Under the pieces are notes generated by a model. The model ran no database searches. It saw only the letters and a program-made list of their open reading frames with translations, and was not told the DNA's origin. This document shows, one piece after another, positions 6,810-63,322 of a DNA stretch of 64,000 nt; position 1 is the first letter of the stretch, and each line of letters begins with the position of its first letter. Origin of the DNA: a virus (taxonomy: Duplodnaviria > Heunggongvirae > Uroviricota > Caudoviricetes); IMG/VR virus record IMGVR_UViG_3300044951_001136, one strand, 5' to 3'. The position numbers were made by a program, and so were the translations under genes.

Positions 6810-6817
6810 GGTGTAAT

Positions 6818-7363: not shown

Positions 7364-7364
7364 A

Positions 7365-7988: not shown

Positions 7989-7994
7989 CTACTA

Positions 7995-8023
7995 TTGACA
8001 ATAGCAGATTATTTTGCTACAAT
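7995..8023 (+). promoter_or_regulatory. sigma70 consensus promoter TTGACA-N17-TACAAT, -10 ends 6 nt before ATG 8030
   Basis: ttgaca 7995-8000, 17-nt spacer, tacaat 8018-8023. Confidence 0.6.
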
Positions 8024-8029
8024 AATAAG

Positions 8030-12406: not shown

Positions 12407-12937
12407 ATGAGTACAGCACTTTTTAGAAAATATATTGATATGATAAATGAGGCACAAGAAGGTGGCCCTGCTGACATACAACAAATAGCAGCAGGTATGG
12501 AATTCTTACCTACACATAAGCAACCAAAACAATACAAATATGTAGATGGTGGTATGCCAGGTAAGATGCCAGCAATGACATATACTGTAGCAACACAACA
12601 AATGCCAGTTGTTACTATTACTAGTGATGGTAAAGAAACACAAAATGTTGCTGAACCAAATGATATAATTATGTCTGGCCCAAGCAGAGAAAATTATGTT
12701 GTTAAGTCAGCAAAATTTCCTAAATTATATCAAGGTAAACTAGGTGAAGTTGTTGTGCCCGAACAGGGTCCTAGAATGGTAGCATTGTATACTGGTCAAC
12801 AACCAATCACATTTACTGCGTCATGGGGTGAGCAAATGGTATTAAAGCCAGGGGATTACCTAGTCAAAGACGGTGATAACTACTATCGTATTGCTAAAGT
12901 AGAATACGAACAAACATATAACCCACCGGGTAAATAA
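12407..12937 (+). CDS. hypothetical protein (176 aa)
   Basis: ORF with AAAGGAAATAAAATG SD. Confidence 0.5.
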   Translation: MSTALFRKYIDMINEAQEGGPADIQQIAAGMEFLPTHKQPKQYKYVDGGMPGKMPAMTYTVATQQMPVVTITSDGKETQNVAEPNDIIMSGPSRENYVVKSAKFPKLYQGKLGEVVVPEQGPRMVALYTGQQPITFTASWGEQMVLKPGDYLVKDGDNYYRIAKVEYEQTYNPPGK

Positions 12938-15900
12938 TGAAAATCAGTGCCCTACTTGAAGGTCGTACACACCTAGACGAAGGTGGCAATCTATCTATTA
13001 ACGGAAAAGAAGCACAGCATTTAGATTTAAAGGTAACTAAGCGTAGTTACATGGTTCCTAAATTAAATGAACTACTTTACGCAATTAATTCTGCTTATTT
13101 TAAAATGTATAAGCAAGGATTATGGAGTAATGAACTCTTAACAAGTGGTAAGTTCTTAAGTGGAAGTTCATTGCATTTCTTTAATGTTAAGGGTATCTCT
13201 GATGAGGTATTTACAGAAAAGAAACCAACTGTTGGTGATATTGACACCATGGTTGACAAAACAAAAGAACCTAACTTACAACAATTCTTGACAGCATACA
13301 CTAACAAACAAATAGGTGCTGCGACATTTTTAGGATTTCAAAGAGGCAATGAACAATTCTCTGGATTGTTTGAATTGCAAGACCCACCTGTTAAAGTACA
13401 GATTGATTTTGAATTTGTAGAATTTGAAAAAGACAATCCAACTGATTGGGCTAGATTTAGTCATAGTAGCGCATGGGAGGATTTGCAAGCAGGAGTTAAA
13501 GGTGTATTCCATAAATGGTTGATACAAGCATTTACAGCACTAACTCGCAAAGACTTCATATTACGAAAATTGGTTGGTAGAGGTAAATTAAGACAAGAAC
13601 AAGATGTTCCTACCACAGATAACATGTATTCTTTTGCAGTATCTAGCAAAGAAGGTGGCGGACTACGAGCAAAGTATGAACCGGTATTAGATGATAATGG
13701 AAAACCGTTAGTTAGTAAAGGTTTACCTGTAATGCGGGAAGCACCTACATCAGGATATAATCAAGACATTGGACAAATCTTTTCAACGATTTTAGACCAA
13801 CGATTAAATCCTAAACAAGCAAAAGCATTGCAAAAACAATTCTGGTCATTCACTGGCTTATTACAAGTAATGAATTCTTTGATGAGTCCTGAAGAAAAAG
13901 AACAAGTAATGCAGGGGTTCTTGCAAAAGACAATAGGGCCAGGTGCACAGGGTATGTACAAAAATAACCCTGATAAAGATATTGCAGAGAAAATGGTAGC
14001 GATCAACACCTTACTAGACACATTAAAACTATCTAAGTCCGCTGAATTAGACCAACTACTTGCTGCATACCGTAAATCATTCAAATATACATCAGCTGGT
14101 GCTGAAGAAAAAGCAGGAGCTGATGCCGATGTTGTAAAATCAATGGCAAAGAATACATTAGCCGAAGCAGTTCCTAGCTATAAGCGTAAGGGTATTCAAC
14201 ATATATACAATCCTGGTTCATCTACTGAGATGAAGGATGCAGATTTTATCAATTTTTGTAAAGAGATAGCACAAGATGGTGGCAATTTTGCAAATGTTCC
14301 TATTAACTTGAAAGTAGATGGTGCTGGCATAAGATTTGGCAGAACACAAAATGGTGAACCATTCTTTATGACTAGTAGAGTTGAAACTCCCATGACTAAA
14401 GCCAACATTGGTGATTTTGAGAAGTATGGAAGAAGTCAAGGTCAATCTGATGAGCAACTGACAAGAACACAAAATTATGATAAAGTATTAAGTATAATTG
14501 TTAATGCTAAATTTATGAAAGATATTCCACCTGATACAATTGTCAATGCTGAAATGTTATTCAATCCAATGGCACAACAAGATAGTGGTGGTTTTAAGTT
14601 TGTTAACATCCCATATGATCCTAAGAAATTAGGTAAGGTAATGACTCTTGTTCCAATTACTGTTAAGCAATACAGTACGGGTGAACAAAGTCCTGATGCT
14701 GATGAGATTAAAGAAGCATTAATTAAAGATAGCACCCCTGATATCAAAATGATTAATAATACATTGAGCCATAAAGGCATTGATGTTAGTAAAATTGTTA
14801 ATCCTATCGTAAAGAACTCAGCAGCATTATTGAATGCGGTGTCTCAGAGAGGGGATTCACCTGACAAACAAAAAGCAAAAGCAATATTATCTGCTGCAAG
14901 ACAAGCATTAAGCAAGGTGATTATTAACAGTCCTATACCAGGGAAAGATCAACTTGGTGATATGATTGAAGGTCTTGTTATTAATATGCCAAGCGGTACT
15001 CTTGCTAAAGTAACAAGTCCTGACATGCAGCAAAAGATGGCTGACAAACAAGCCATGAACAAGAAGCCAACTGAAGGTGGAAATCGCACAACCACCGCAG
15101 TAATCACTTATGGTTCATTTGTGGGTCATAAAGGACATGAACAGTTAATTGATGAAACAATTGCTATAGCAAAACAAGTGGGTGGAGTACCATTCATATA
15201 TGTAAGTCCAGTTGTTGGTCCAGATGATCCTATTCCACCAGCAGACAAAGTTAAAACATTGCAGAAGTTGTATCCACAATATGCAAACAACATTCAAGTT
15301 TGGGATGCAGGCGGAACTGCAATGAAGAAGATTGAAAAAGAACTTGTTCTTCCGGCTAATAGTAAATACAATAAAATTATAGTTGTAGTAGGTGCGGATA
15401 GAAAAGACAGTACAGAGTCGTGGTTAAATAGTTTAGAAAAGCGCATGAAAGATCCAGTTGCATTAGCCAAGTATGGTGGGACACAAAATCAAGTTGAATT
15501 TCAAACAATTGGTACAGAGCGTGATCCTGAAAAAGGTGGAACTGGAATAAGTTTTACTCAATTGCGTGATATCTTAAAAAATCCTAATGCAAGTGAACAA
15601 GACAAATTAAACGTTTGGATGCAGGCATTTGATTCACAAAAGCTAGGAGTAGCGTGGATAAAGCATTTAATGGATACTACTGCAAAATATTCAAACAATC
15701 AACCGCAAGCTATTAAAGAGTATATTAAAAAGATTAAGCCAATGCTTGAGTATGCTACTCCTATTCAGAAAGTTAAAATATACAATCAATTGTTAGAAGC
15801 AAAACAACATCTAGATGAGATGGGTGCTACCATTGAACCTATAGAAGAAGAAGAGGTGATGGCTCATATGGCAAACGCCTTAATCAAAGGTGCACCTATT

Positions 15901-16002
15901 GCCAAACTAAGAGCAGCAAGAGATCAAGAACGGATGAAAAAACGTGAACAAGATTATGGTCGTCCGCAAGCTCCTAAATTTGATTATCTAGACGAAAAAT
16001 AA
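12937..16002 (+). CDS. large multidomain protein (1021 aa): N-terminal Pol-beta-like nucleotidyltransferase motif, central KxDG ligase-like motif, C-terminal HxGH cytidylyltransferase-fold domain
   Basis: LSGSSLHF...GDIDTMV; NLKVDGAGIRFGRT; C-terminal ITYGSFVGHKGHEQL ... GGTGISFTQLRDIL (NMNAT/TagD-like HxGH and ISxTxIR motifs). Confidence 0.55.
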   Translation: MKISALLEGRTHLDEGGNLSINGKEAQHLDLKVTKRSYMVPKLNELLYAINSAYFKMYKQGLWSNELLTSGKFLSGSSLHFFNVKGISDEVFTEKKPTVGDIDTMVDKTKEPNLQQFLTAYTNKQIGAATFLGFQRGNEQFSGLFELQDPPVKVQIDFEFVEFEKDNPTDWARFSHSSAWEDLQAGVKGVFHKWLIQAFTALTRKDFILRKLVGRGKLRQEQDVPTTDNMYSFAVSSKEGGGLRAKYEPVLDDNGKPLVSKGLPVMREAPTSGYNQDIGQIFSTILDQRLNPKQAKALQKQFWSFTGLLQVMNSLMSPEEKEQVMQGFLQKTIGPGAQGMYKNNPDKDIAEKMVAINTLLDTLKLSKSAELDQLLAAYRKSFKYTSAGAEEKAGADADVVKSMAKNTLAEAVPSYKRKGIQHIYNPGSSTEMKDADFINFCKEIAQDGGNFANVPINLKVDGAGIRFGRTQNGEPFFMTSRVETPMTKANIGDFEKYGRSQGQSDEQLTRTQNYDKVLSIIVNAKFMKDIPPDTIVNAEMLFNPMAQQDSGGFKFVNIPYDPKKLGKVMTLVPITVKQYSTGEQSPDADEIKEALIKDSTPDIKMINNTLSHKGIDVSKIVNPIVKNSAALLNAVSQRGDSPDKQKAKAILSAARQALSKVIINSPIPGKDQLGDMIEGLVINMPSGTLAKVTSPDMQQKMADKQAMNKKPTEGGNRTTTAVITYGSFVGHKGHEQLIDETIAIAKQVGGVPFIYVSPVVGPDDPIPPADKVKTLQKLYPQYANNIQVWDAGGTAMKKIEKELVLPANSKYNKIIVVVGADRKDSTESWLNSLEKRMKDPVALAKYGGTQNQVEFQTIGTERDPEKGGTGISFTQLRDILKNPNASEQDKLNVWMQAFDSQKLGVAWIKHLMDTTAKYSNNQPQAIKEYIKKIKPMLEYATPIQKVKIYNQLLEAKQHLDEMGATIEPIEEEEVMAHMANALIKGAPIAKLRAARDQERMKKREQDYGRPQAPKFDYLDEK

Positions 16003-17026: not shown

Positions 17027-18352
17027 ATGAACCTAAAAGAATTAAACAGTTTTAAACTAAGTGATGCAGTTACATTCCACGACAAACTTAATCCAAAGTT
17101 ATGGAACGGTACTAAACTACGGTCAGAAGTTAGAGAACAACTTATAAAGATAGCACAAGACTTTTTATCGGAATTAGGGGTACATGATTTAGATGTAAAA
17201 GACATCACCATATCAGGCAGTAATGCTGCATTTAGTTACACAAAGCACAGTGATTTAGATTTGCATATATTAGTAGACATGGGCAATTTGCCTATAGATG
17301 AAGTATATAAAGAGTTATTCAATGCAAAGAAAACAATTTACAATGATTCCCATGATATAACAATTCATAAAATTCCAGTAGAATTGTATGTACAAGACAG
17401 TAGAGAACCTGTAGTAAGTTTAGGTGAATATAGTATAATTAATGACCAGTGGATAAGAATACCCACTAAGCGTAGAAGTGATTTTGACCAAACTGCCACT
17501 AAAAGTAAGTATGAAAAGTTATTAGCTGTAATGGAGATTGCCCTCAAATCAAGAAAGTACAGCAGAGTAAAACATATATTAGATACAATCAAAAGATATA
17601 GACAAGCAGGGTTAGATAAAGGGGGTGAATTTTCACCTGAGAATTTAGCATTTAAGATGTTGCGTAGCCAGGGATATATTACAAAGTTGTATGATTTAAG
17701 AAACAAGTTACATAGTGAGAAGTTATCGTTTGAAACTATGTATCGTAATGTCACAGACGAAGATTATGATCCAAATGGTCCTCCTCCTGGACCAGAGTTT
17801 AAACCAACGATGCCCGCAGGTACTGTTAAAGTAGATGTTAGTGATGTATATGATTGGTATAAGTTAGGTCAACATATTAGCAATCTTAAAGGATTAGGAA
17901 AGCATGATTTTGGTAAAGGACCACCTAGTACCATACTGGCGTTTGGAAGTGAAGATGAAGAACATAAGTATATTGATGCACTAAAAAAGACTGGATTAAC
18001 AACAACAGATATTGATCCAGTTGATCCAAAACAACCTAAAGGTATGCCTAGACAGAAAGTTGATCCTACATATAATGTCGGTGAAAATTACACTATGCAA
18101 TTTGCCAGTGAAAAGACTTCAGCAATAAATCCATACGGTGGGCGTAAAGACAATCAATATCGTGGTGGAATAAGTGAAGCAAGTGGTTACATTCCTTCCG
18201 AGTCAGAAAAAAATGATCCACGATTTAAGACCGCACTAACCGTGGATGTGAATCCGTATAGCATTCAGGACAACTCTACGAGACTAGGGTTAGGTAAAAT
18301 AAAAAGAAGCGGTGTACCAAAAACTGCCCCTACAAACGGAAAAATCTCTTAA
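17027..18352 (+). CDS. Pol-beta-superfamily nucleotidyltransferase-domain protein (441 aa)
   Basis: ITISGSNAAFSYTKHSDLDLHILVD fits the hG[GS]x9-13DhDh minimal NTase motif. Confidence 0.55.
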   Translation: MNLKELNSFKLSDAVTFHDKLNPKLWNGTKLRSEVREQLIKIAQDFLSELGVHDLDVKDITISGSNAAFSYTKHSDLDLHILVDMGNLPIDEVYKELFNAKKTIYNDSHDITIHKIPVELYVQDSREPVVSLGEYSIINDQWIRIPTKRRSDFDQTATKSKYEKLLAVMEIALKSRKYSRVKHILDTIKRYRQAGLDKGGEFSPENLAFKMLRSQGYITKLYDLRNKLHSEKLSFETMYRNVTDEDYDPNGPPPGPEFKPTMPAGTVKVDVSDVYDWYKLGQHISNLKGLGKHDFGKGPPSTILAFGSEDEEHKYIDALKKTGLTTTDIDPVDPKQPKGMPRQKVDPTYNVGENYTMQFASEKTSAINPYGGRKDNQYRGGISEASGYIPSESEKNDPRFKTALTVDVNPYSIQDNSTRLGLGKIKRSGVPKTAPTNGKIS

Positions 18353-18404: not shown

Positions 18405-20774
18405 ATGAGATTTAATCAAATAGTAGAAAATACAACAGCAGGATCGGTTGCCACCGTAGCACAGCCTATGATGACTCAAACCCGCGAAAATACTAATGTT
18501 CGTGGACTAAAACCAGTACAACAATTAATAAAGGGCAAATCTAAAAAGAAAGGTCCTTACGCTAATAGCATTGTAGAAAGCAAAGTCACTGAAGATGATC
18601 TTTCAGAACAAGACTTAATTGTTGTTCCTGGACAAGGCAGATTAAAAAGAACCGGATTTGTTAAACATGATTTAGATCAAGGTGAACATGAAGGCCACAC
18701 ATTAAAGAACAGTTTACACACTATCGCCCGTGCTGCCAGTGATTTAGACGAGAGATTATCTGTTCAATCTGAATTCCCAGAGTGGGTATCAGAGAAGATT
18801 GGCGCAGCAAAAAGCATGATGGTTAGTGTTATGGATTATCTAATCAGCAGCCAAGAGATGCAAGGTGTCGCGGAGGTTAGTGATGCTACTAAAGCAAGTT
18901 ATTTAGAAAAAGCAAAAGCACAAGTTAAAGGACTTACCCCAGATGCTAAAAAAGGTGAATATAAAGACATTGCTCAACGCATGATTTCACGGAGAGAAAA
19001 AGGTATCGATAGAGTAACACCAAAAGATGTGGAGGAAGGCTCCAAGTATCCTTGGTTAGATAATCCCAGAAAGAACCCCAACCCCAAACCAACAGAACCA
19101 GAGAAAGGTGTGTCAGAAGGCTCCAAGTATCCTTGGTTAGATAGTCCCAGAAAGAAACCAGAACCAGAGAAAGATGTGGCGGAAGGTTACGATCCCGGTG
19201 ATAAGATTACTTGGTATCACAGCAATCATTATCCTGAAATTGAAGGCACCATAGTTGGTTGGAAAGACGGGCATCTTATTGTTAAATCAGTTGATCCAAG
19301 CCCAAGAAACACCGAAAAGACTGTGGCAAAATATCGTGTTCCTAAAAATAATATTTTAAGTCATACAGAGCAAGGTGTGGCGGAAGGCTTTAATGAATCA
19401 TTAGATGATTTGAAATCAAAATATCAACATCACACTTACTTGTCAAGAACATATCTAAAGAGAGGTAACAAAGAAAAGGCTCAGCAGCATCACACTAAAG
19501 CATATGATATCAATCAACAGATAATGAAGCATCCTGATTACGAATTAAAGTTCATTGACGATCCGCGGACAAATGATGCACTTGCAATGAAACATGATAC
19601 AAGATTTAATGAGCAAGGTGTGGCGAAAGGCTCGAAAGGATTGAACGAGTTAGCACCACCTGAGCGTAAAGACGGTCAGGGAGATAGATTTTTCTTTCAG
19701 GAAGACTTTGAAAGCGACGACGGAAAATACATTATTGAAATTTATGCCGTGGCCGACAGTAACTCCTATGCAGTGTCGTTTCATCGTGGAGATAAACAAT
19801 ATGTAATGTATCCAATTGATGGACTTGATGCCGGTGATCTGTCAGAAGGTGCCGATCGGTATGTACAAGAAATTAAACAAAATGCGGCACACGGAAGTCA
19901 AAACGATTTTATAGGATTTTCTAGTATGGATTTGGAAGACTTTATACCTCCGGAGCAAGGTGTGTCAGAAGGCCAGTTAGATGAATTGAATAGAGACACT
20001 GTTACTTCTTACTATGACAAAGCGGAGAAAGATCAAGATAAACAATTTACCACTATTGGTAAAGGTATAAGAGACAATGACCCAAAATCTGCAAATAAAG
20101 CAGGTCATAAATTTTCAATGAGAAGTGTTGGATTGAATCGTGCAGAAAAACGGTTACAAGATAAAAATATAGCAGAAGGTGCTATGCCAGCATCAGTAAT
20201 TCGTGTCAAAGAAAAAATTCGCCTGATGACCGATGCTGAAAAGAAAGAATACTTCAAAGGCAAGACCCAAGCGCAATTACAACAAATGGCTAGGAGACAT
20301 GGCTATGGTGAAAATAGCAAGGTGTACGCCAAGTATGCAACACAAGATGTAGCGGAAGGCTCCAAGTATCCTTGGTTAGATAGTCCCAGAAAGAAACCCA
20401 AACCAACAGAACCAGAGAAAGATGTGGCGGAAGGCAGCTCTCCAAGTCCCTATATGTCAGACAAACAAGCTAACGCAGAGATGAAATTATGCCGTAAAGG
20501 ATACACACCTTCCACCCGCTGGTCCAGATATCCAAATTTCGACAAGGACGAAATTGCTGATATTGGCGCCGGTGGTAAAGAATACAATGTAAAGACTGAT
20601 GCTGCATGGGATGCTGCTAAGAAAAAAGTTAGTGAAGGTGCCAAAGTAGATCGTATGGTTAGTCATATTGAAAAGAGTGAAGAAAAGGCAGGCAAGTCAA
20701 AGAAAGTCGCTAAGAACATTGCTTGGGCAACTGCTAACAAACGCGGCATGTTAGATAACAAGAATAAGAAATAA
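18405..20774 (+). CDS. large charged repetitive protein (789 aa), putative packaged internal virion protein
   Basis: N-term MRFNQIVEN shared with 22370/38916/41464 proteins; about 9 copies of (E/K)QGV(A/S)EG-type motif; SKYPWLDxPRK segment three times. Confidence 0.6.
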   Translation: MRFNQIVENTTAGSVATVAQPMMTQTRENTNVRGLKPVQQLIKGKSKKKGPYANSIVESKVTEDDLSEQDLIVVPGQGRLKRTGFVKHDLDQGEHEGHTLKNSLHTIARAASDLDERLSVQSEFPEWVSEKIGAAKSMMVSVMDYLISSQEMQGVAEVSDATKASYLEKAKAQVKGLTPDAKKGEYKDIAQRMISRREKGIDRVTPKDVEEGSKYPWLDNPRKNPNPKPTEPEKGVSEGSKYPWLDSPRKKPEPEKDVAEGYDPGDKITWYHSNHYPEIEGTIVGWKDGHLIVKSVDPSPRNTEKTVAKYRVPKNNILSHTEQGVAEGFNESLDDLKSKYQHHTYLSRTYLKRGNKEKAQQHHTKAYDINQQIMKHPDYELKFIDDPRTNDALAMKHDTRFNEQGVAKGSKGLNELAPPERKDGQGDRFFFQEDFESDDGKYIIEIYAVADSNSYAVSFHRGDKQYVMYPIDGLDAGDLSEGADRYVQEIKQNAAHGSQNDFIGFSSMDLEDFIPPEQGVSEGQLDELNRDTVTSYYDKAEKDQDKQFTTIGKGIRDNDPKSANKAGHKFSMRSVGLNRAEKRLQDKNIAEGAMPASVIRVKEKIRLMTDAEKKEYFKGKTQAQLQQMARRHGYGENSKVYAKYATQDVAEGSKYPWLDSPRKKPKPTEPEKDVAEGSSPSPYMSDKQANAEMKLCRKGYTPSTRWSRYPNFDKDEIADIGAGGKEYNVKTDAAWDAAKKKVSEGAKVDRMVSHIEKSEEKAGKSKKVAKNIAWATANKRGMLDNKNKK
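19035..19066 (+). repeat. intragenic direct repeat copy 1 (GAAGGCTCCAAGTATCCTTGGTTAGATA...), approximate bounds
   Basis: Same about 30-45 bp DNA string at 19035, 19116 and 20355. Confidence 0.6.
19116..19196 (+). repeat. intragenic direct repeat copy 2, approximate bounds
   Basis: gaaggctccaagtatccttggttagatagtcccagaaagaaacc...gaaccagagaaagatgtggcggaagg shared with copy 3. Confidence 0.6.
20355..20435 (+). repeat. intragenic direct repeat copy 3, approximate bounds
   Basis: As copy 2. Confidence 0.6.
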
Positions 20775-20775
20775 T

Positions 20776-21927
20776 ATGAAACCATCAGATTTTTTAACAG
20801 AACTATCTAACGAAAAGTTAGCACAATACAAAACTGCTGCCGCAGCCGATGCCAGTAAAGCAGATAAAGAAAAAGATTTTGCTCGTGGCAACAAGCGTTT
20901 TAGTGGCATTGTAAAAGCAACTAATAAACAATTTGCAAATGATGTTAAGAAAGAATCAGTTGGTATACCTTATCCAGGAACATATGAAGAAACAAATGAT
21001 ATGTTCAAAGGTTCCGGACAAAGACGCACTGGTACACTAACAACCGAACAAGGTGTGTCGGAGGACAAGTTAAATGAATTAGATATCTTTGCTCCAGTGA
21101 CCACTTATGTTAGATTAGCCAATGGCACATACGTTGCAGCCAGTTGGCGCCGCAACCAAAATTTATCTACTGCAAGTAACTCAGCATCATTTATTGACAT
21201 AAAACCAGTGGCTCCTAATGTTGCTAAACAATTGGGATTAGATCAAAGACTAAATGATCCAGAAAAAAAATACACAGGTGCCGCAACGATTGCATCAGGT
21301 GGCCCTATTCAATCAAGCGGTCCACTTGCTGATAGAACTATTAACGTAGTTGATATTAGCGATCCAAAGGCTGCTACAGACCTCGGTGTTCCTGATACAC
21401 TCTTTGGAAAAATTGCTCAATGGGCGCAACAGCAAGGTCAAAAAGAACAAGGTGTGGCGGAGGAACAACATAGTTGCCCACACTGTAATGGACCAATGTT
21501 CAGTGAAATGATAATGAATGAAAAGAAAGATGCTTGCTACTATAAAGTAAAAAGCCGTTATAAAGTATGGCCAAGTGCCTATGCTAGCGGTGCATTAGTC
21601 AAATGTCGTAAAAAAGGTGCAAGTAATTGGGGTAATAGTAGTAAGAATGAAAGTTCTATACTAGAAGGCATAAATCAAACGGATGAAAGTTTACATGATT
21701 GGTTTAATAAAGAAAAGTGGGTTCGCATGGATACCAAAGGTAATATCAAGGGTCCATGTGCAAGAGAGCCGGGAGAAGGTAAACCAAAATGTTTGCCTCA
21801 AAGTAAAGCACACAGTTTAGGTAAAAAGGGTCGTGCAAGTGCAGCAGCAAGAAAACGCAGAGAAGATCCCAATCCAGAGCGTAGTGGTAAAGCCATCAAT
21901 GTCAACACAAAGAAAACTAAAGGATAA
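20776..21927 (+). CDS. putative internal virion / DNA-binding protein with strongly basic C-terminal tail and Cys cluster
   Basis: EQGVSED and EQGVAEE motifs; CPHCNGP...CYYK; C-term KGRASAAARKRREDPNPERSGKAINVNTKKTKG. Confidence 0.55.
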   Translation: MKPSDFLTELSNEKLAQYKTAAAADASKADKEKDFARGNKRFSGIVKATNKQFANDVKKESVGIPYPGTYEETNDMFKGSGQRRTGTLTTEQGVSEDKLNELDIFAPVTTYVRLANGTYVAASWRRNQNLSTASNSASFIDIKPVAPNVAKQLGLDQRLNDPEKKYTGAATIASGGPIQSSGPLADRTINVVDISDPKAATDLGVPDTLFGKIAQWAQQQGQKEQGVAEEQHSCPHCNGPMFSEMIMNEKKDACYYKVKSRYKVWPSAYASGALVKCRKKGASNWGNSSKNESSILEGINQTDESLHDWFNKEKWVRMDTKGNIKGPCAREPGEGKPKCLPQSKAHSLGKKGRASAAARKRREDPNPERSGKAINVNTKKTKG

Positions 21928-21929
21928 TA

Positions 21930-22370
21930 ATGTTATCAGATAACTTAAAAACACTATTGGGCAGTACATTTGTACTGTATACAAAAACTCACGGATTTCA
22001 CTGGAATATCGAAGGAAGCAATTTCCCGCAATATCATAAATTTTTAAATAAAATGTATGATGAAATCTATGGAACTATTGATACTATTGCCGAATATATC
22101 AGAACTTTAGGCAGTTATTCTCCAGGCAGCTTAGGCAGAATGCTTGAATTGAGTATCATTGAAGAACAACATAAAATTCCTCGTGCTGAATTAATGCTTG
22201 AAGAACTACTAGTTGATTGTGAAAAAATGATTAAGTTAGTAACTGAATTATTTGACATTGCAACAGAAGAAAAAGCACAGGGAATTGCCAATTATCTAGC
22301 TGAACTACAAGACTTATATGCCAAGAAAGCATGGATGATTCGTGCTACACTTAAAAAAGCCCGTGAGTAA
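21930..22370 (+). CDS. Dps/ferritin-like protein
   Basis: STFVLYTKTHGFHWNIEGSNFPQYHKFLNKMYDEI matches the Dps ferroxidase-site region (HWNV.G..F..H..). Confidence 0.7.
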   Translation: MLSDNLKTLLGSTFVLYTKTHGFHWNIEGSNFPQYHKFLNKMYDEIYGTIDTIAEYIRTLGSYSPGSLGRMLELSIIEEQHKIPRAELMLEELLVDCEKMIKLVTELFDIATEEKAQGIANYLAELQDLYAKKAWMIRATLKKARE

Positions 22371-23746
22371 TGAGAGCAATTGAATTTATTAATGAGACTG
22401 CCTCATATCAACCGCCCAAGTTATCAGTTGGTGATAAAATCCTCAAGGGTAAATTTAAGAATAGTCCAGCAGAGATTAAAGGCTTTACTAAAGACAAGCA
22501 CAATCAACCTGTACTAAAAACTAACAAAGGTGAAGTACAGTTATTCAAGCCTCGCATTAGTAAATTAATGAAGGAAGATGAACCAATCAAAATAAGCAAC
22601 AACGATGCCGCAAAGGCTTGGATTGAAAAGGTCTATCAAAAGTATCCAACTATCTTTAAAAATAATCATGTAATGATGTGGGGCGAAGGTGACACTCAGC
22701 AGCTTGCAATGTTTGAACTAACCCCAAGTTTCAGCAAACGAGGTGCAGTAGAAGTAAAATGGTTTCAAGCATATCCACTACGTCAAGGGGTCGGCTCACG
22801 CGCAATGAAAGAATTGCAAGCCATGGCACAAGCAGATGGAATTGCACTAACATTGTTCCCTTGGCAACACGGTCAAGTAAGTCAAAGTAAACTAACAAAG
22901 TTCTACAAGGGGCAAGGCTTCGCTCCTATACACAAGGGTAGTAAGAGCATGAAGTGGGATCCAGCAGTCGGCGAAGCAATGGATCAGGGTTCAAGATGGA
23001 CCGGTGATGAGCCATATAGACAATTAGTTGAACTAGATGATTTAGAAGAAGATTGGAAGAACTGGGTCGCTGGTGGTGCTATGGCATTGGGAGCATTAGG
23101 TGCTGCTAATCAATATAATTCTCCGGTAGAACCAGTTAGAACAGCTAAAATATCTAAAATAACTCAACCCGATGCTGCTCCTGAAGTACAAGTTAAAGCA
23201 GCAACACCCGTAGTTAAAGCAGCATCTCCCACAGTAGATACACAAGCAGAAAATGTTTTATATCAAACTGCAAAAAAAGAAGGAATGAAGGGATCAGAAT
23301 TAGCACAATTTTTAGCTCAGACGAAACATGAAACTTGGAATTTTAGTAGGTTACAAGAAAAGCCACAACCAAAGGTAAAAGATTATTTTGCTAAAAAATA
23401 CGATGTTAAACATTCACCCAGAACTGCTAAGATACTTGGTAATAAACAAGTGGGAGATGGTGCTAGATATCACGGCAGAGGATATATTCAATTGACCGGT
23501 CGTGACAACTATCGTATGGCAGGTGACGCCTTGAAGATAAACTTACTCAAACAACCTGAACTTGCAGCAAGGCCTGACATAGCGTTAAAGGTAGCACTGT
23601 GGTATTGGAACACAAGAGTTAAACCGGGGATAAATAACTTTGATGATACTGCCGCAGTTACTAAGAAAATTAATTCTTCACTATCAGGATTAGAAGATAG
23701 ACACGCAAACTTTATAGATTACAAGAAACGCATTAAATCAACATGA
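22370..23746 (+). CDS. multidomain lysozyme: N-terminal domain + internal hydrophobic segment + GH19-type catalytic domain
   Basis: GRGYIQLTGRDNYRMAG ... WYWNTRV GH19 signature; hydrophobic WVAGGAMALGALGAA; N-term MRAIEFINE shared with other putative virion proteins. Confidence 0.7.
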   Translation: MRAIEFINETASYQPPKLSVGDKILKGKFKNSPAEIKGFTKDKHNQPVLKTNKGEVQLFKPRISKLMKEDEPIKISNNDAAKAWIEKVYQKYPTIFKNNHVMMWGEGDTQQLAMFELTPSFSKRGAVEVKWFQAYPLRQGVGSRAMKELQAMAQADGIALTLFPWQHGQVSQSKLTKFYKGQGFAPIHKGSKSMKWDPAVGEAMDQGSRWTGDEPYRQLVELDDLEEDWKNWVAGGAMALGALGAANQYNSPVEPVRTAKISKITQPDAAPEVQVKAATPVVKAASPTVDTQAENVLYQTAKKEGMKGSELAQFLAQTKHETWNFSRLQEKPQPKVKDYFAKKYDVKHSPRTAKILGNKQVGDGARYHGRGYIQLTGRDNYRMAGDALKINLLKQPELAARPDIALKVALWYWNTRVKPGINNFDDTAAVTKKINSSLSGLEDRHANFIDYKKRIKST

Positions 23747-24183
23747 AAAAAATAATAATATTATTAGCATTGACAATACTATCTAGTGTTGTATTAGCAC
23801 AAAAACAAAAAGAAGGTGTAACATATGATGCTGTAATAACTAGGGTTATTGATGGTGATACGGTAGCCTTTCACGCACCGTTCTTACCTGATCCATTAAA
23901 GAAAGAATTAAGTATTCGTGTGTTTGGTGTTGATACACCGGAAAAAGGTTTCAGGGCAAAATGTCCTAGTGAGGAGCAACGAGGTCAAGCAGCAACTGCC
24001 TTCACTAAACATGCAATTGAAGTAGCAACTAAAAGACAAATTGTTCTCATGGATTGGGACAAGTATGGCGGGCGTGTGTTGGGTGATGTAATATTAAATG
24101 GACAAAGTCTTAGACAAATGTTAATTAGTCAAGGTTTTGCCCGAGAATACTATGGTGAAGCTAAAACTAGTTGGTGTAATTAA
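23743..24183 (+). CDS. secreted staphylococcal-nuclease-like (SNase/thermonuclease) protein
   Basis: Signal peptide MKKIIILLALTILSSVVLAQ; VIDGDTV and GVDTPE SNase motifs. Confidence 0.7.
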   Translation: MKKIIILLALTILSSVVLAQKQKEGVTYDAVITRVIDGDTVAFHAPFLPDPLKKELSIRVFGVDTPEKGFRAKCPSEEQRGQAATAFTKHAIEVATKRQIVLMDWDKYGGRVLGDVILNGQSLRQMLISQGFAREYYGEAKTSWCN

Positions 24184-24772: not shown

Positions 24773-25357
24773 ATGCTCACTGAACACATTATTATTGAAT
24801 CCGCTACAAATGAATTGGCAAAACGCTTGCCGTCATTGCAAAAACATGACTACACAACGATTGACAAATTAATGCGTCAAGTTGCTAGTAGACATAGTAT
24901 TACTAGCAAAGCACTACATGACCTATTTGTGCGGAAATTCAAACGATCACCGGATAACTGGGTTAAGGGCAAGCTAGATGAAGAAAATGACGAACCAGAC
25001 TTTTTAGCAGATAACCCAATAATGCAGAAATTCATTCAATTTGCAGCACAAAAACTTAATCTACAATCAGTACCCGAAATTGAATTCAGCTACGATACTG
25101 AAGAAGCACAAGAAGGTCATCATACTGGTCGCCATAGTACAAATGATAATAATGTTTGGGTATATGTTGCTAATCGTAATATGGTTGATATTATGCGTAC
25201 GGTCCTGCATGAACTTACTCATGTCCGTCAAGGTGAATTGGATATGATTAAACCAGGTGATAGTTACCCAGGTAGTCCAATTGAAATGCTAGCTGATATG
25301 AGTGCCGGAAAATATATGAAAGTATTTGGCAAAGATCACCCGGAAATCTTTCAATAA
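24773..25357 (+). CDS. putative zinc metallopeptidase-like protein
   Basis: HELTHVRQGE HExxH motif near C-terminus. Confidence 0.45.
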   Translation: MLTEHIIIESATNELAKRLPSLQKHDYTTIDKLMRQVASRHSITSKALHDLFVRKFKRSPDNWVKGKLDEENDEPDFLADNPIMQKFIQFAAQKLNLQSVPEIEFSYDTEEAQEGHHTGRHSTNDNNVWVYVANRNMVDIMRTVLHELTHVRQGELDMIKPGDSYPGSPIEMLADMSAGKYMKVFGKDHPEIFQ

Positions 25358-26038: not shown

Positions 26039-26299
26039 ATGTCAGCAAAAATGTTTACAGGTGAGCAAAAAATTAAGTTAACCCAATTGGTGAATGAAGG
26101 AATGGTAGTCCTACATGAGATTGATACCCTTCGTGAGGGACTATCCGATACTATTAAGGCTATTGGTGAAGAACTAGAAGTTAAGCCTAGTATACTTAAG
26201 AAAGCAATCTCTGTGGCACACAAAGCAAGTCTTGGCCAAACCACTGCTGACCACGAAGAACTTGTGACAATTTTGGAAACTGTGGGAAAAACTTTATAA
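26039..26299 (+). CDS. hypothetical protein (86 aa)
   Basis: ORF, TAATG-coupled to DNA polymerase. Confidence 0.45.
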   Translation: MSAKMFTGEQKIKLTQLVNEGMVVLHEIDTLREGLSDTIKAIGEELEVKPSILKKAISVAHKASLGQTTADHEELVTILETVGKTL

Positions 26300-38096: not shown

Positions 38097-38926
38097 AAAA
38101 AATATTAATTACAGGTTGTTCGGGTTACATTGGTAGTCATCTAGTTAAGATGCTAGCAAATGACTACGAGGTACACGGCCTAGATATCAATGTTCCGCAA
38201 GCTGACGGATTACAAGAATTCTATCAAGTTGATATTCGTAGACTATTTGAATTACCAACCGAGTTTGATGCAACGATTCACTTGGCAGCACTAGTCAATG
38301 TGGGTGAAAGTGAGCGTATCCCACTAAGTTATTACATCACTAATTTGAATGGTACAATGAATGTTATCAATAAGGTACGGACAAAGAACTTTATATTTGC
38401 CAGCACTGGAGCAGCAGTGGGATGTGCTAGTGCGTATGGCATTAGTAAACGAGCAGCAGAGGATGTGGTGCGTGAGTATTTTACTCAGCATAATCCTAAA
38501 CCTTATACAATATTTAGATTCTACAATGTTATTGGTAGTGATGGGTTTGATCCAACCAATCCTGATGGATTAATGTATAATCTAATGAAGGCTAAGGAAA
38601 GAGGCGAGTTTACCATCTTTGGCAATGATTATGATACACGAGATGGAACCTGCATTCGTGATTATGTTCATGTTAACGAGATATGTGACGCATTATGTAC
38701 TGCTATTGAGAAGCCAAGTAATCAAATAGAATGTTTAGGGCATGGGGTAGGTTATACTGTTGCCGAGATAGTTAATAAGTTCAAAGAAGTAAATAATATA
38801 CCTAATATTAATTTGCTTACAAAGATAGGCCCAAGAAGAAAGGGTGACTTAGCAATATCTGTATTAGATAATGTGTCACCCTATATGAAAGAGGTATACT
38901 CTTTGGAAGATTTGCTTAAGATTTAA
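38093..38926 (+). CDS. NAD-dependent epimerase/dehydratase (extended SDR, GalE-like but shorter)
   Basis: ILITGCSGYIGSHL Rossmann; YGISKRAAE YxxxK catalytic motif. Confidence 0.75.
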   Translation: MKKILITGCSGYIGSHLVKMLANDYEVHGLDINVPQADGLQEFYQVDIRRLFELPTEFDATIHLAALVNVGESERIPLSYYITNLNGTMNVINKVRTKNFIFASTGAAVGCASAYGISKRAAEDVVREYFTQHNPKPYTIFRFYNVIGSDGFDPTNPDGLMYNLMKAKERGEFTIFGNDYDTRDGTCIRDYVHVNEICDALCTAIEKPSNQIECLGHGVGYTVAEIVNKFKEVNNIPNINLLTKIGPRRKGDLAISVLDNVSPYMKEVYSLEDLLKI

Positions 38927-39812
38927 TTTTAACCCATTTATCAACTAGCATATTTTTAAGTGCTACTGTATCTGGTAACTTATTCTTACGCATAAAATCA
39001 TTTAATTTAACAGCAGTTGGATAATCAGTAGAATTAGGTTTACGAGCATTGCTCATATCTACACCAAGATTACTATCGGAATCTGGACGTCTACTGCCAT
39101 AGTAGACTAATTCATATCGCAACTTTTCAGCACGGCTAGTTAAATCTGATTTTTTGTTTTTATATATTAGTTCTACCCACGGTTCAAGGTACATTGTCGG
39201 CGGACGACTTGGTGTGTAACCTTTTGGTTGTTGTCCTTTAAGCAATTTAGCAGCGTCACCGGGAGTAACTGCTTTGCGGGTATCTTGTAAACGCCATGCC
39301 TTCTCATCTGTGTATAAGTAAGCTGATATACCTTGCTTCTTGGCAGTGATTAAAATTGTTCTAACTTCGGGGCTACGATTTTCGCTCTGTTCTTTGAGCA
39401 AAACATGAACAGCAATTACTCCGTTAATTGGAATTTCAGGTGTCTTTGAAAATACTCTATCTTCGCTTTCACTGGTACGAGTACCGTTACTATGTTGCCA
39501 AGACCTTTCCCAATAATCAATTGCTTTTGTTTTGTAATGCCGATTTAACCAGTTCCCATCAATTACAAACATAGCGGCGCTGCTACCAGTATATCGGTGA
39601 TAGTCTCCCACTTTGCTGCGAGTTGTGCTTAGAAAGTAAAGATATCCCGGCGGTGCATATTGTTCTTCACTAGAGTTACCTGTGACACTACTTAATTGAA
39701 AAACTCCAGTAGTTAGAATTTTTGCAGCAGCAGATACACCGGCATAATGGTAGACAATAGCAGTAGCTGCTTCATCTAGTATTGCTTCTGCGATAAATTC
39801 AGTTGCTCTCAT
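38916..39812 (-). CDS. putative packaged virion protein (298 aa)
   Basis: N-term MRATEFIAEA matches MRAIEFINE (22370) and MRFNEIISEA (41464-) class. Confidence 0.5.
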   Translation of the reverse strand: MRATEFIAEAILDEAATAIVYHYAGVSAAAKILTTGVFQLSSVTGNSSEEQYAPPGYLYFLSTTRSKVGDYHRYTGSSAAMFVIDGNWLNRHYKTKAIDYWERSWQHSNGTRTSESEDRVFSKTPEIPINGVIAVHVLLKEQSENRSPEVRTILITAKKQGISAYLYTDEKAWRLQDTRKAVTPGDAAKLLKGQQPKGYTPSRPPTMYLEPWVELIYKNKKSDLTSRAEKLRYELVYYGSRRPDSDSNLGVDMSNARKPNSTDYPTAVKLNDFMRKNKLPDTVALKNMLVDKWVKIKS

Positions 39813-41467
39813 TAATGTCTTAACAATAGGGTACTCAATACACCAGGATCATTCGCACTAACATCACCTTCACCCGGTGCAACGATAACATTGTACTTCA
39901 TTCCAGCTGGAATTGAATTTCTCTTAGACATATATTCATTATAACTTAAAATACTTGAAGAACTAATGCCGTATTCGTTAGCAATTCGTTGTTTCATTTG
40001 TTTAAGTGCTGCGTCATCAGCAGGTTGCCATGCTCCGTCATCCGTCTTTTTCAAGTTACCCTTCTCATCCTTGGCCAATAAGTCATAGAATAGTTTCTCT
40101 GGAACAATACGACTGTTCTTTGTCTTATCTAATTTAGGATCCTGAGCCTTTACTTGTTTCTCTTGCTCGGTGTTAGCACCTTCACTCCAATTGATGATGA
40201 AGTTATCTGGCTTCTTAGCTAATGCTGCTCCTGCCATCTTAGTGTACGCATAGAATCTAACATCAGGATGTTTAGCAGCCATTTTTAATGCCATATCCAA
40301 GTATTCTGGACTGAAGAAGTCGCCGGCATCATGCCAACGAACCGTTACTTTCCATCCATTGGGGAATTTCTTATCGCCTGCAGCACCCTCTTGTGATTCA
40401 GCAGAGATTTCATTGCTTAGTTGATTAAAGAAACCATCTGGATCATTCAACAGATATGTAAGTATTCTGCCGTCACTTTGCCATGCAGCCTTAAATTGAA
40501 TCTTGCCGCCCTTCATGGCGAAACAATCAACTTTACAAGAGCCGGCGCCTGGACATGTGTTAACAACAATTAGATTATTTGTTTGTTCATCTAATGCAAT
40601 ACCTACCAATGCCGCGAACCCAACATTAAAGAATTGTTCAAACTCACCATTGCTGTGCTTCATCTTTTCGTTTTGTTTAAGTAATGCTTTGGGACGAATT
40701 GCTAATGTTTGTTTAACAGCATCTTCATCGTATGTTTTACCATCTGGACTTAAGTATGTAACTACACTACTACGATGGATGTAAGGCATCTTGTACTTGT
40801 CACCTTTAGTTTTACCAGTTGTATATTTTTCATTGCCCTTTTTATCTACTTTAACATTGCCTGCTTTATCTACATCGGGAGTACCAACGATTCGTTTCAT
40901 GTAATCTTGAAACTCTTGACCCTTTAAGTCACGAGTTTGTGCTGGTAGTTTAGTTGCTTCATCTAGTCCAGATAGACTACGAATTCTTGCTAGATGTTCT
41001 TCACCTTCCGCTAAACTTTGCTCATCATAACCATAGTCACCGGTTTTCATATCATCAATGTAAGCATACTCATCTTCATAACCATTCTTTTTAGCTGCTG
41101 CGCGAATATCATCATATGTTATCCCATGTTTGCGGGCATACTTTGGCAAGTAGTCAGCTGGATCACCATCTGGGAAAATGTTGCTGATGATCTGAGTAAC
41201 ATCAAACCAAATCTTATCTAAATCTAATTTAGGTTCTGGTGCAGACATTCTTGATAATTTAGGCATAGCTGGCTTTGCTACCTTGGGATTACCCTGGCGA
41301 TCAAGTGGAACGCCACCTGGACCATGTGTAAATCTGCCTTCATCTACTTCTTCATCTGGCATATCACCAGCACTAGCAACAAATTGCTGAGGTGTCATAA
41401 TTGAGATACCCTTTGGGGCGCCCGGCAACTTTGGCTCTGCGCCTTCTAATAATTCTTTGAAGTTCAT
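39812..41467 (-). CDS. putative packaged virion protein (551 aa), Cys-cluster domain of unknown function
   Basis: N-term MNFKELLEG; EQSLAEGEE motif; NTCPGAGSCKVDC...WHDAGDFF. Confidence 0.5.
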   Translation of the reverse strand: MNFKELLEGAEPKLPGAPKGISIMTPQQFVASAGDMPDEEVDEGRFTHGPGGVPLDRQGNPKVAKPAMPKLSRMSAPEPKLDLDKIWFDVTQIISNIFPDGDPADYLPKYARKHGITYDDIRAAAKKNGYEDEYAYIDDMKTGDYGYDEQSLAEGEEHLARIRSLSGLDEATKLPAQTRDLKGQEFQDYMKRIVGTPDVDKAGNVKVDKKGNEKYTTGKTKGDKYKMPYIHRSSVVTYLSPDGKTYDEDAVKQTLAIRPKALLKQNEKMKHSNGEFEQFFNVGFAALVGIALDEQTNNLIVVNTCPGAGSCKVDCFAMKGGKIQFKAAWQSDGRILTYLLNDPDGFFNQLSNEISAESQEGAAGDKKFPNGWKVTVRWHDAGDFFSPEYLDMALKMAAKHPDVRFYAYTKMAGAALAKKPDNFIINWSEGANTEQEKQVKAQDPKLDKTKNSRIVPEKLFYDLLAKDEKGNLKKTDDGAWQPADDAALKQMKQRIANEYGISSSSILSYNEYMSKRNSIPAGMKYNVIVAPGEGDVSANDPGVLSTLLLRH

Positions 41468-42654
41468 TTCTTGTTATTCCTAATAAATTGTTCAGCAAGC
41501 ATTACTAATTCATGTAGTTCTTCAATGCTTTCGCAATGCCATCTACGCAAACTTTTATTTATATTGCTATTTGGATCTCTTGCTGTTTTTGCACCAGTAC
41601 GATGTTTCTTCATTCCACGCATTCTGGCACAAAAGCTAGCTCTACGCTTTGCTGCCTTGCTACCTTTTTTAAGTTTGCTTGGCTTAGTTGTTACCGCTGT
41701 TTGAATCTTGCTACCAGGATGACTGCGGCGATAGCTACTAACAGACTTTTTACTCATCCCACCTGCTCTTGGGTTGTTATGCTTTGACCAAGTTTCGCCT
41801 TCATCAACTTCTTGTGAACTGAGGAAATTACCTAATTCTTCAGCACCAGTACCACGTTGACCATCTTGATGTTTCCAATTAGAACCTTGACGAACAATCT
41901 TATCACCGTCATCATTTGCATAAACACTACTGTTGTCAGAGTAATATCCGAAAGAATTCAGTGTGGATACTAGATTATCACTTGCCTCAGAGCCTTCCGG
42001 CAGCCATTTCGCAAAGGCTTTTCTAAGGGTTGGTTTATCTACAACATGAGTTGTATCATCCATTGGAACATAAGCTGTGTTAGTATTTTTCCCCGTTGCG
42101 TCGGTTTGCTGTCTGACAGTTGCTGCACCAAGATCATATGATTTATCAGCCGCTACTTGCTTACCGGTAGCATCGGTAGTTTGTTTAATCTTCAATGGTC
42201 CTGCATTGTAATTTTGCGTAATTTGATTAGTAGTTAAGTCGATGGTTTGGCCAGATCCATTAAAGTTAGGACTACTATATGTTATAGCCTTACCCTGAGC
42301 ATTGTATGTAAATGAACCAAACCCGCCAGAATAAGTTCTAGTACCATCTTTGTTTGTTGTTACTCTATTGCCATTACCTAGATCACCGTCTCGTGCGGGT
42401 AACTGTGGCACAGGCGGCACTTTAACCTGTGCCCTTGGAGCAGTAGGTGACCCTAGAGCAGCCATTGCATTATTAGTCGCACCTGCCACAGTGGCCGCAC
42501 CCAAGCCTCTTAAGAATCCTCTGCGGTCAATTTCTTCTAGGTTGCCTTCCGCCACACCTTGCTTTGGCTTCTTTCCAGCTTTTTTCATGGCAATTGCAAT
42601 TGCTGCTTGTTGGGCAGGACTACCTGCTTCGGATATAATTTCATTAAATCTCAT
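41464..42654 (-). CDS. putative internal virion protein with Tat-like RRGFLRG segment after a QGVAEG motif and a very basic C-terminus
   Basis: MRFNEIISEAG...KQGVAEGNLEEIDRRGFLRGLGAATVAGATNNAMAALG; C-term KKGSKAAKRRASFCARMRGMKKHRTGAK. Confidence 0.55.
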   Translation of the reverse strand: MRFNEIISEAGSPAQQAAIAIAMKKAGKKPKQGVAEGNLEEIDRRGFLRGLGAATVAGATNNAMAALGSPTAPRAQVKVPPVPQLPARDGDLGNGNRVTTNKDGTRTYSGGFGSFTYNAQGKAITYSSPNFNGSGQTIDLTTNQITQNYNAGPLKIKQTTDATGKQVAADKSYDLGAATVRQQTDATGKNTNTAYVPMDDTTHVVDKPTLRKAFAKWLPEGSEASDNLVSTLNSFGYYSDNSSVYANDDGDKIVRQGSNWKHQDGQRGTGAEELGNFLSSQEVDEGETWSKHNNPRAGGMSKKSVSSYRRSHPGSKIQTAVTTKPSKLKKGSKAAKRRASFCARMRGMKKHRTGAKTARDPNSNINKSLRRWHCESIEELHELVMLAEQFIRNNKK

Positions 42655-63312: not shown

Positions 63313-63322
63313 TATAATAGCA

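Follow-up and report, generated by a model that had tools for sequence, protein, structure and literature searches.

The 64-kb stretch of DNA analysed here, called the window below, belongs to a 234.5-kb metagenomic contig (JGI Ga0485158_0000001; IMG/VR record IMGVR_UViG_3300044951_001136) whose sequence places it with the T4 superfamily, as DNA of a jumbo phage that has not been cultured. Our subject is a block of genes in this window, together with three minus-strand genes at 38.9-42.7 kb, whose products include proteins with a short N-terminal tag and proteins with a recurring linker of the QGVAEG type (Table 1). The family-B DNA polymerase of the window (26299-29004) has its nearest relatives, at 43-48% identity, in Phosso, Vibrio phage 2.275.O, Atu_ph07, XaC1, and the RaK2 group, which are jumbo phages with T4-like core genes. 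We found no DNA-level match to the block among cultured phages by megablast and no match to the 789-aa protein among them by tblastn; tblastn of the 551-aa protein gave only four uninformative matches.

Table 1. Genes, tags, linkers, and signal-like segments of the window. Arrows mark predicted cleavage points.
Feature	Position	Strand	Description
1021-aa protein, variant tag MKISALLE↓G	12937..16002	+	Nucleotidyltransferase-like N-domain, cytidylyltransferase-like C-domain
441-aa protein (MNLKELNSF...)	17027..18352	+	Nucleotidyltransferase "carrier" domain; first gene of apparent operon
Second linker type RGGISE↓ASGYIPSE in 441-aa gene	18161-18202	+	
789-aa polyprotein	18405..20774	+	Conserved N-terminal carrier (1-157), about nine cargo cassettes, conserved basic tail
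Tag MRFNQIVE↓N of 789-aa protein	18405..18428	+	I-V-E site; E8 nearly invariant
NSIVE58↓S	18564..18578	+	Module junction; insertions here in homologs
Linker MQGVAE↓V (E157)	18858..18878	+	
Linker PKDVEE↓G (E211)	19020..19040	+	
Linker EKGVSE↓G (E238)	19101..19121	+	
Linker EKDVAE↓G (E260)	19167..19187	+	
Canonical linker EQGVAE↓G (E327)	19368..19388	+	Exact 18-mer
Decayed linker EQGVAK↓G (residue 408)	19611..19631	+	Glu to Lys, one base
Linker EQGVSE↓G (E522)	19953..19973	+	
Linker DKNIAE↓G (E591)	20160..20180	+	Different codons
Linker TQDVAE↓G (E651)	20340..20360	+	
Linker EKDVAE↓G (E676)	20415..20435	+	
Site KKKVSE↓G (E744)	20619..20639	+	Sole site within confidently predicted helix
383-aa protein (MKPSDFLTE↓L)	20776..21927	+	Conserved carrier N-domain; basic DUF5872-type C-terminal modules
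383-aa protein, linker EQGVSE↓D	21046-21066	+	
383-aa protein, linker EQGVAE↓E	21445-21465	+	
Dps/ferritin-like protein	21930..22370	+	Untagged; conserved island anchor across clade
458-aa protein	22370..23746	+	GNAT-like region; GH19 domain at about 23264-23626
458-aa protein, tag MRAIEFINE↓T	22370-22396	+	
458-aa protein, LDDLEE↓DWKNWVAGGAMALGALGAAN	23033-23110	+	Degenerate site and Gly/Ala-rich signal-like segment
Staphylococcal-nuclease-like protein	23743..24183	+	Classic N-terminal signal peptide; last gene of block
194-aa protein (MLTEHIIIE↓S)	24773..25357	+	Invariant HExxH, minigluzincin-like fold; alternative processing-protease candidate
298-aa protein	38916..39812	-	Body without known domain
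298-aa protein, tag MRATEFIAE↓A	39786-39812	-	Nearest match to T4 capsid-targeting sequence
551-aa protein, variant tag MNFKELLE↓G	39812..41467	-	GP88 domain
396-aa protein	41464..42654	-	
396-aa protein, tag MRFNEIISE↓A	42628-42654	-	
396-aa protein, canonical linker KQGVAE↓G	42544-42564	-	
396-aa protein, RRGFLRGLGAATVAGATNNAMA	42460-42525	-	Tat-type signal
396-aa protein, site SQEVDE↓G	41797-41817	-	
396-aa protein, basic DUF6321 module	about 41539-41769	-	

An N-terminal tag on unrelated proteins

Five proteins begin with clear copies of the tag, two on the plus strand (789 and 458 aa) and three on the minus strand (298, 551, and 396 aa). An original prediction, made for the plus-strand block, had named these near-identical N-termini; all five are there, and the three on the minus strand lie outside that block. 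Weaker variants start the 1021-aa (MKISALLEG), 383-aa (MKPSDFLTEL), and 194-aa (MLTEHIIIES) proteins, and the pattern M-R/K-x-x-E/Q-Φ-Φ-x-E (Φ, hydrophobic) is found on five to eight unrelated proteins of the window. All window tags close in Φ-x-E (I-A-E, I-N-E, I-S-E, I-V-E, or L-L-E). Across the window and related loci we took open reading frames (ORFs) of 100 aa or longer and found the strict form M[KRN]xx[EDQ]ΦΦxE at 76 of 949 ORF N-termini compared with 2 of 6799 internal Met positions, an enrichment of about 270-fold at true N-termini. The commonest form is MRAxEF(I/L/V)xE.

By all-versus-all BLASTP, the tagged proteins have no mutual similarity outside short common motifs. They are therefore not paralogs, and the earlier description of them as a family has to be dropped. 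The codons of the tags follow genome usage (GAA 28, GAG 17; TTT 33, TTC 12; GCA 29, GCC 7, GCT 7, GCG 2). Because these codons vary freely, the tag must be maintained as a peptide and not as DNA.

The first 10 residues of T4 IPIII, MKTYQEFIAE, form a capsid-targeting sequence (CTS), in which residues 4 and 7 matter in targeting and residues 8 and 10 matter in processing (PMC9026906; PMC3012670). The T4 gp21 protease cleaves after L/I-X-E (PMC9026906). MRATEFIAE↓A, the tag of the 298-aa protein, differs from the T4 CTS by the deletion of one residue, and EFIAE is common to both. In some proteins the tag is joined directly to the linker, as in MRATEFIIEGVAEG and MRINEILVEQGVAE. We read the tag, as the best interpretation, as a distant relation of the CTS system of T4. 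The proposal that it is a capsid-targeting propeptide is well supported, if only indirectly, by this likeness, the Φ-x-E end, the unrelated and variable cargo, the maintenance of the tag at the peptide level, and the T4-type portal, scaffold, major capsid protein, and S77 protease of the clade.

A linker conserved as peptide and as DNA

The motif (Q/K)(G/D)V(A/S)E-G occurs in 10 copies plus 1 decayed copy (QGVAK) in the 789-aa protein, twice in the 383-aa protein, and once in the 396-aa protein. A six-frame scan of the window found it in those three genes only and in no other frame or gene. Its recurrence in three proteins had been predicted correctly, as had the high charge of the 789-aa protein (32%; 130 Lys plus Arg and 124 Asp plus Glu), the Lys/Arg-rich tails, and the GH19 and Dps/ferritin assignments. 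The motif had also been called periodic, and this did not hold, since its spacing in the 789-aa protein ranges from 22 to 114 aa. Pfam and PHROGs detected no domain in the 789-aa or 298-aa protein, and a Foldseek search of PDB with the 789-aa model had no significant match (top match, PUR repeats; E = 0.3).

Three short GSKYPWLD...EPEKDVAE units of the 789-aa protein are evident local duplications, as would be expected if the repeats were a by-product of recent tandem duplication, or a structural or binding motif (for DNA or the capsid interior), with no role in cleavage or recombination. Most copies, however, have unrelated flanks, lie in predicted disordered stretches, and occur in unrelated proteins of phages whose polymerases are only 55-60% identical. 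We consider this explanation very improbable.

We found over 180 metagenomic homologs of the 789-aa protein, whose residues 1-157 match 739 cluster representatives. Across these homologs the N-terminal carrier and the basic tail are conserved, and the centre consists of changing cassettes split by QGVAEG; E58 is the sole invariant column of the family. The homologs, 67,224 aa in all, contain 176 copies of GV[AST]E. In the AlphaFold model of the 789-aa protein, the confident modules span residues 90-200, 333-375, 429-495, 596-645, and 729-779, and 10 of the 11 sites fall in low-pLDDT linkers at module borders. At canonical sites the P1 residue is Glu in 250 cases, Lys in 4, Gly in 3, Asn in 1, and Asp or Gln in none. 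At P3 we found V, M, L, or I and, in one case, A; P5 and P1' are tolerant.

We also found that signal-like hydrophobic segments follow these sites. In 252 proteins, 40 of 58 such segments begin no more than 25 residues after a site, compared with a random expectation of 13%, and their register after the site is fixed at 4-5 or 13-15 residues. They take Sec-like (E↓GWKSKLGAAALAGAAALGGGSAQA) and Tat-like (E↓GSLEEVDRRGFLKGLGAA...AQA) forms; post-linker examples are GWKSKLGAAALAG... and RRGFLKGLGAA.... The 396-aa protein has the layout KQGVAE↓GNLEEIDRRGFLRGLGAATVAGATNNAMA, with a sub-threshold match to Pfam TAT_signal. The GH19 protein of 458 aa carries a degenerate version, LEE↓DWKNWVAGGAMALGALGAAN, in which the Gly/Ala-rich segment (residues 229-247) sits behind the tag and the GNAT-like region of about 220 aa. 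Its signal segment is thus not N-terminal ahead of the muralytic domain, as it would be in a secreted or SAR-type GH19 endolysin. Only a cut at LEE↓D would bring the segment to an N-terminus. Signals in a fixed register directly after the site argue for cleavage there and a new N-terminus, and these observations are consistent with the linker motif being a cleavage site.

At the DNA level, the canonical linker is the 18-base CAAGGTGTGGCGGAAGGC, read as CAA GGT GTG GCG GAA GGC. Several of its codons are rare in the genome (GTG, 15% of Val; GCG, 8% of Ala; GGC, 16% of Gly). The window has 11 matches to CAAGGTGTGGCGGAAGGC with up to 3 mismatches, compared with 0.01 expected, which rules out chance, and all are in frame on the coding strand. 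The exact 18-mer is present in at least 119 viral contig stretches. All 153 of the exact copies listed are in frame; they lie in 122 long ORFs, whose N-termini are very diverse. Conservation covers only about 20 bases in all, the flanks being unrelated across 138 distinct contexts, and 244 of 301 GVAE sites share the same 12 bases. The DNA polymerases of the linker-carrying phages are only 55-92% identical to that of the window (mostly 55-62%), so recent genome ancestry does not explain the conservation of the linker DNA. Recent common descent, which we ruled out on these grounds as the cause of the conserved codons, is also countered by the normal synonymous variation in the tags of the same genes. 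Divergent linker copies (NIAE, VSEG, VTEV, and VEEG) use other codons and retain Φ-x-E. Selection therefore acts at both levels, peptide and DNA.

The 18-mer appears in 56 stretches of bacterial genomes (596 Gb), nearly all of them single matches and many in high-GC genomes. We judge this to be approximately the chance level, and the element is therefore phage specific. A metagenome-assembled contig of 8.9 kb that was binned with Bacteroidetes (CAILDT010000116.1; L256) contains three exact 18-mers and is probably a mis-binned phage fragment. The literature searched does not mention QGVAEG or DUF6321, nor does it mention a stereotyped, DNA-conserved linker that bounds shuffled cassettes.

Comparison of close relatives showed that the same cassettes occur in different genes and orders, that is, that they are shuffled. 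In a relative with a 97% identical polymerase (L010), there is one more tagged gene (MRAIEFLSE), and the GH19 protein contains two GNAT-like domains. Another, with a 91% identical polymerase (L011), has instead an MRAREFLSE protein, in which we read by eye a candidate ParB-like motif, and a different secreted nuclease, an Endonuclease_NS protein (L011 15244-16059) in place of the staphylococcal-nuclease-like protein of the window. The L011 ortholog of the 441-aa protein is expanded to 1151 aa (6493-9948) by QGVAEG-bounded cassettes and has a nucleotidyltransferase domain and a gained dCMP deaminase domain. Cassettes of the 441-aa family are also divided by a second type of linker, NPYGGxKDNQYRGGISE↓ASGYIPSE, of which the 1151-aa ortholog has three copies. 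Thus, cargo is polymorphic between close relatives, with tagged genes and cassettes that differ where polymerases are 91-97% identical.

Individual cassettes can be followed between genes. The DUF6321 tail of the 396-aa protein is found nearly unchanged on a 789-type carrier in another protein (P0060), and the VSDATK... cassette, which is first in the 789-aa protein, is near the end in L010. The GLNE(L/F)APPER... cassette has linkers on both sides and occurs in proteins with unrelated N-termini. Because single-linkage clustering joined the motif-split homologs into one big cluster, we used breakpoint statistics instead. Breakpoints in homolog similarity fall at Φ-x-E↓small sites in 31-41% of cases, compared with 6% at random, which is an enrichment of about 5-fold.

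The conservation of the linker DNA and the shuffling of cassettes go beyond the original prediction, and a protease site alone does not explain them. They raise the alternative that the linker does no more than join, flexibly and in frame, the recombined parts of intact, multi-domain "polyvalent" effectors, packaged or not, in which the likeness to Φ-x-E is incidental. Such a joint would suit DNA conserved with rare codons in hundreds of contexts, the shuffled cassettes, and the absence of the canonical motif from core head proteins, and uncut packaged polyvalent proteins do exist, such as the N4 virion RNA polymerase (PMC5512222). It does not account for the divergent copies, which change codons and retain Φ-x-E followed by a small residue, or for a P1 residue that is never Asp or Gln. 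Nor does it fit Sec and Tat signals that sit in a fixed post-site register and would otherwise stay buried 30-500 residues deep, or tags that close in the identical Φ-x-E. We therefore regard a joint without cleavage as rather doubtful.

Links to the prohead and candidate proteases

Head genes were found in relatives of the window phage. In Atu_ph07, a portal, an S77 "prohead core protein," a scaffold, and the major capsid protein lie within 13 kb, and the scaffold begins METGFEKLLE↓G. A 374-kb viral contig (L193) that carries an exact in-frame linker (L079) encodes Portal_T4, Peptidase_S77 (L193 7963-8601; E = 3.6e-25), a scaffold protein, and a Gp23 with ...MLAE↓NASGG. Between the portal and the S77 protease of this contig (6895-7950) is an acidic 351-aa protein with a tag-like start, MNKFEKLIEY..., whose position corresponds to that of the T4 prohead core proteins gp67 and gp68.

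We examined 120 capsid proteins of the clade (P0121-P0240), which are about 70% identical. Most of them have ...PLME↓TATAGATSSGNVATL aligned to the T4 gp23 cut (LTE↓A). None of these 120 listed homologs of the Atu_ph07 capsid protein comes from the 234.5-kb contig. The start of the 789-aa family, QIVE↓TTTAGSVATVAQP, resembles the capsid-protein site and the residues that follow it (the window copy reads NTTAGSVATVAQP), and its sequence could represent mimicry of the capsid-protein maturation site. The predicted site of the clade capsid proteins, L-M/A-E↓T/N, has only the generic Φ-x-E in common with the linker.

The basic DUF5872 and DUF6321 modules at the C-termini of the 383-aa and 396-aa proteins are also present in the cyanophage-only protein T4-GC119, which P-SSM2 (PSSM2_123) encodes between gp15 and gp16 and which is annotated as structural, a virion protein, in phage S-B68 (QBP06184). 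This is a partial link to virions. Between its modules, T4-GC119 has V-E-E↓G, V-N-E↓G, V-T-E↓A, and V-H-E↓G; unlike the window proteins, it has no CTS-like tag, canonical QGVAEG linker, or variable cassettes. Mass spectrometry detected a cyanophage cytidylyltransferase (T4-GC190) in virions (PMC3037559). A domain of this kind is present in the 1021-aa protein, a candidate packaged enzyme.

On balance, and with slightly more confidence than doubt, we favour the reading that the products of the block and of the three minus-strand genes are precursors of proteins that sit inside the capsid (ejection proteins) and are handled by a tag, an S77 protease, and linkers. The 8-9-residue tag M-(R/K/N)-x-x-(E/Q/D)-Φ-Φ-x-E would, as the CTS does in T4, dock unrelated cargo on the prohead scaffolding core. 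A gp21-type S77 prohead protease that cuts after Φ-x-Glu would remove the tag and, we infer, may also cut the carrier-plus-cassette proteins wherever they have a (Q/K)(G/D)(V/I)(A/S)E↓G linker. From the 789-aa protein this would yield about 11 small proteins or peptides, which would stay with the DNA and be ejected into the next host, and cleavage would unmask Sec- or Tat-type signal peptides at the start of some released cassettes. The 18-base CAAGGTGTGGCGGAAGGC may itself serve as in-frame microhomology for swaps of cassettes between genes and phages, and a newly acquired cassette would bring its own release site. The full dual-purpose version, in which one linker is both DNA microhomology for cassette trade and a prohead-protease release site and the unmasked signals lead to re-export into the periplasm of the new host, is possible, and we put it forward only tentatively.

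The 194-aa protein offers a different enzyme. It has an invariant HExxH motif, an invariant E9, and 1157 homologs, and is present in most linker-bearing loci. Its model (pLDDT 82) has a C-terminal half that resembles minigluzincins and IrrE/CapP-type metallopeptidases, and Foldseek matched the model to abylysin, jannalysin, selecase, IrrE, and CapP with probabilities of 0.9-1.0 (E = 0.06-0.4). Phmmer found no match to this protein in PDB. Cleavage could thus occur in the cytoplasm, by this minigluzincin-like neighbour or by a host enzyme, and not in the capsid by a prohead protease. The cassettes would then act in the infected cell or be exported by way of their signal peptides (the GH19 as a lysis enzyme, along with modules for the periplasm), and the tag might serve for recognition by, for example, the phage ClpX, ClpA, or ClpS. 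This would fit an invariant HExxH and a zincin-like fold conserved in the island, a phage that encodes DnaJ, ClpA/B, ClpX, ClpS, and ClpP, signal peptides that suit proteins made and exported in one cell, and genes that sit among replication genes. The fold-search E-values are weak, however, and the Pfam zincin (WLM) match is sub-threshold. In addition, strict P1 Glu with hydrophobic P3 is the signature of gp21/S77 and not of a zincin (PMC9026906), and the tag is close to the CTS of T4, which has no Clp genes. The zincin itself starts with the tag-like MLTEHIIIE↓S, with its invariant E9, and may therefore be cargo and not the processing enzyme. Taken together, we judge cytoplasmic cleavage to be unlikely.

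Several points count against processing by a prohead protease in the capsid. We found a single GVAE in 857 kb of clade capsid-gene loci, and this near-absence indicates that the linker is not a general maturation site; it belongs to a variable island beside the Dps and polymerase genes. The strict tag is also rare around the clade capsid genes (3 of 1013 ORFs), and the island genes are located among replication genes. The protease and capsid genes of the window phage presumably lie elsewhere on the 234.5-kb contig, and S77 is known from relatives. The E744 site falls within a confident helix of the 789-aa model, and a protease site requires no conservation at the DNA level. Signal peptides would not be expected on capsid-internal proteins, and a secreted GH19 protein could equally be a lysis enzyme. 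The signal examples come from only three or four homologous families and are thus not fully independent. The 194-aa zincin, to go by its model, is a candidate for an alternative processing protease. The anatomy, the statistics, the conservation of the linker DNA, the movement of cassettes, and S77 in a linker-bearing phage are results of the analysis, from which we infer packaging, cleavage, the identity of the protease, and the role in recombination. The claim that the motif is a prohead-protease site thus stands in part: disordered linkers, P1 Glu, and the signal register support it, and the near-absence of GVAE from core head loci does not.

Other features of the surroundings were recorded. 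The 10-kb flanks on each side of the window contain no head genes, tags, or linkers; the upstream flank (L267 1-10000) has very large ORFs (982+, 1725, and 825 aa) that are probably tail-fibre genes, the 825-aa ORF with a weak He_PIG Ig-like match. Proteostasis genes at 8030-11103 and 61557-63679 encode DnaJ, ClpA/B-like, ClpX, HSP20, and ClpS proteins, and ClpP is just beyond the window edge (L268 15529-16101). This DnaJ/Clp/HSP20 set fits "group 2.2" jumbo phages (PMC7824862). A promoter-like (G/C)(A/T)TAAATA box lies only 4-7 bases 5' of several start codons (the ATGs at 17027, 24773, 6198, 24224, 53044, and 58669 and that of the minus-strand gene 51871-52365), and its placement could reflect transcripts that are very short or lack a leader. 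We found only three occurrences of the T4 late promoter TATAAATA, none preceding a tagged gene, and Rfam found no family in the window.

Relation to known systems and implications

The arrangement has much in common with T4 IPI, IPII, IPIII, and Alt and with other T-even CTS proteins. In both, a short N-terminal propeptide with an L/I-x-E end (for gp21 in T4) sits on unrelated cargo, cargo varies between close relatives, and the genes lie outside the head cluster; the two tags compare as MRATEFIAE↓A and MKTYQEFIAE↓A. In contrast to T4, the tag here lacks one residue, the phage that carries it is a jumbo phage on a distant branch of the superfamily, and the putative cargo includes large enzymes (nucleotidyltransferases, GNAT, GH19, and ParB-like proteins) and multi-cassette polyproteins.

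Multiple cuts after Glu by a gp21-family protease during head maturation are also known for T4 gp22, gp67, and gp68 and for the ejection or inner-body proteins of phiKZ, 201phi2-1, and SPN3US. The proteins described here likewise have multiple P1-Glu sites in accessible regions, as multiply cleaved prohead-protease substrates do. They differ from these substrates in that one stereotyped, DNA-conserved heptapeptide lies exactly between folded cassettes and in that this type of site is not used in core head proteins (857 kb of capsid-gene loci). The phiKZ-type motif, S/A/G-x-E, is unlike the linker, and the fragments of the T4 core proteins are mostly discarded, whereas the cassettes proposed here would be delivered.

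Polyvalent proteins (Iyer et al. 2017, PMC5512222) also combine many effector domains in one polypeptide and are predicted to travel with the DNA. A polyvalent protein has 2-15 recognizable effector domains, usually with a zincin (MPTase), ParB-like, ART, or lysozyme domain among them, and the overlap with the proteins described here covers ParB-like, lysozyme, GNAT, nucleotide-modifying, and zincin peptidase domains. Polyvalent proteins lack a defined linker, and it is their own zincin domain that is proposed to process them. In the window, a separate gene encodes the zincin, one uniform type of linker joins the cassettes, and most cassettes, which are small, have no annotation. Effector domains here amount to none in the 789-aa protein (Pfam and PHROGs), a weak GNAT-like match and GH19 in the 458-aa protein, and a nucleotidyltransferase and a dCMP deaminase in the 1151-aa protein of L011.

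Short conserved DNA that flanks variable segments is a feature of other phage genes. The glycine-rich motifs of the T-even gp38 adhesin are such sequences and permit modular swapping. The mobile regulatory cassettes of T4-type phages are alike in these respects (PMC2839356). In contrast to these T4-type recombination elements, the linker is an 18-base piece of coding sequence that is in frame in every case and codes for a putative protease site.

If our reading is correct, the T4 logic of capsid targeting and prohead proteolysis would reach into a large, uncultured group of jumbo phages, and the grammar of tag, carrier, linker, and cassette would predict injected phage proteins from sequence alone. 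The linker would also be a rare case of a short sequence selected both as DNA, for exchange, and as protein, for release. It provides a handle for cataloguing hundreds of candidate anti-defence and host-takeover cassettes, for asking whether proteins injected with the DNA can be rerouted to the periplasm, and for engineering the delivery of cargo, which is already possible with the T4 CTS.

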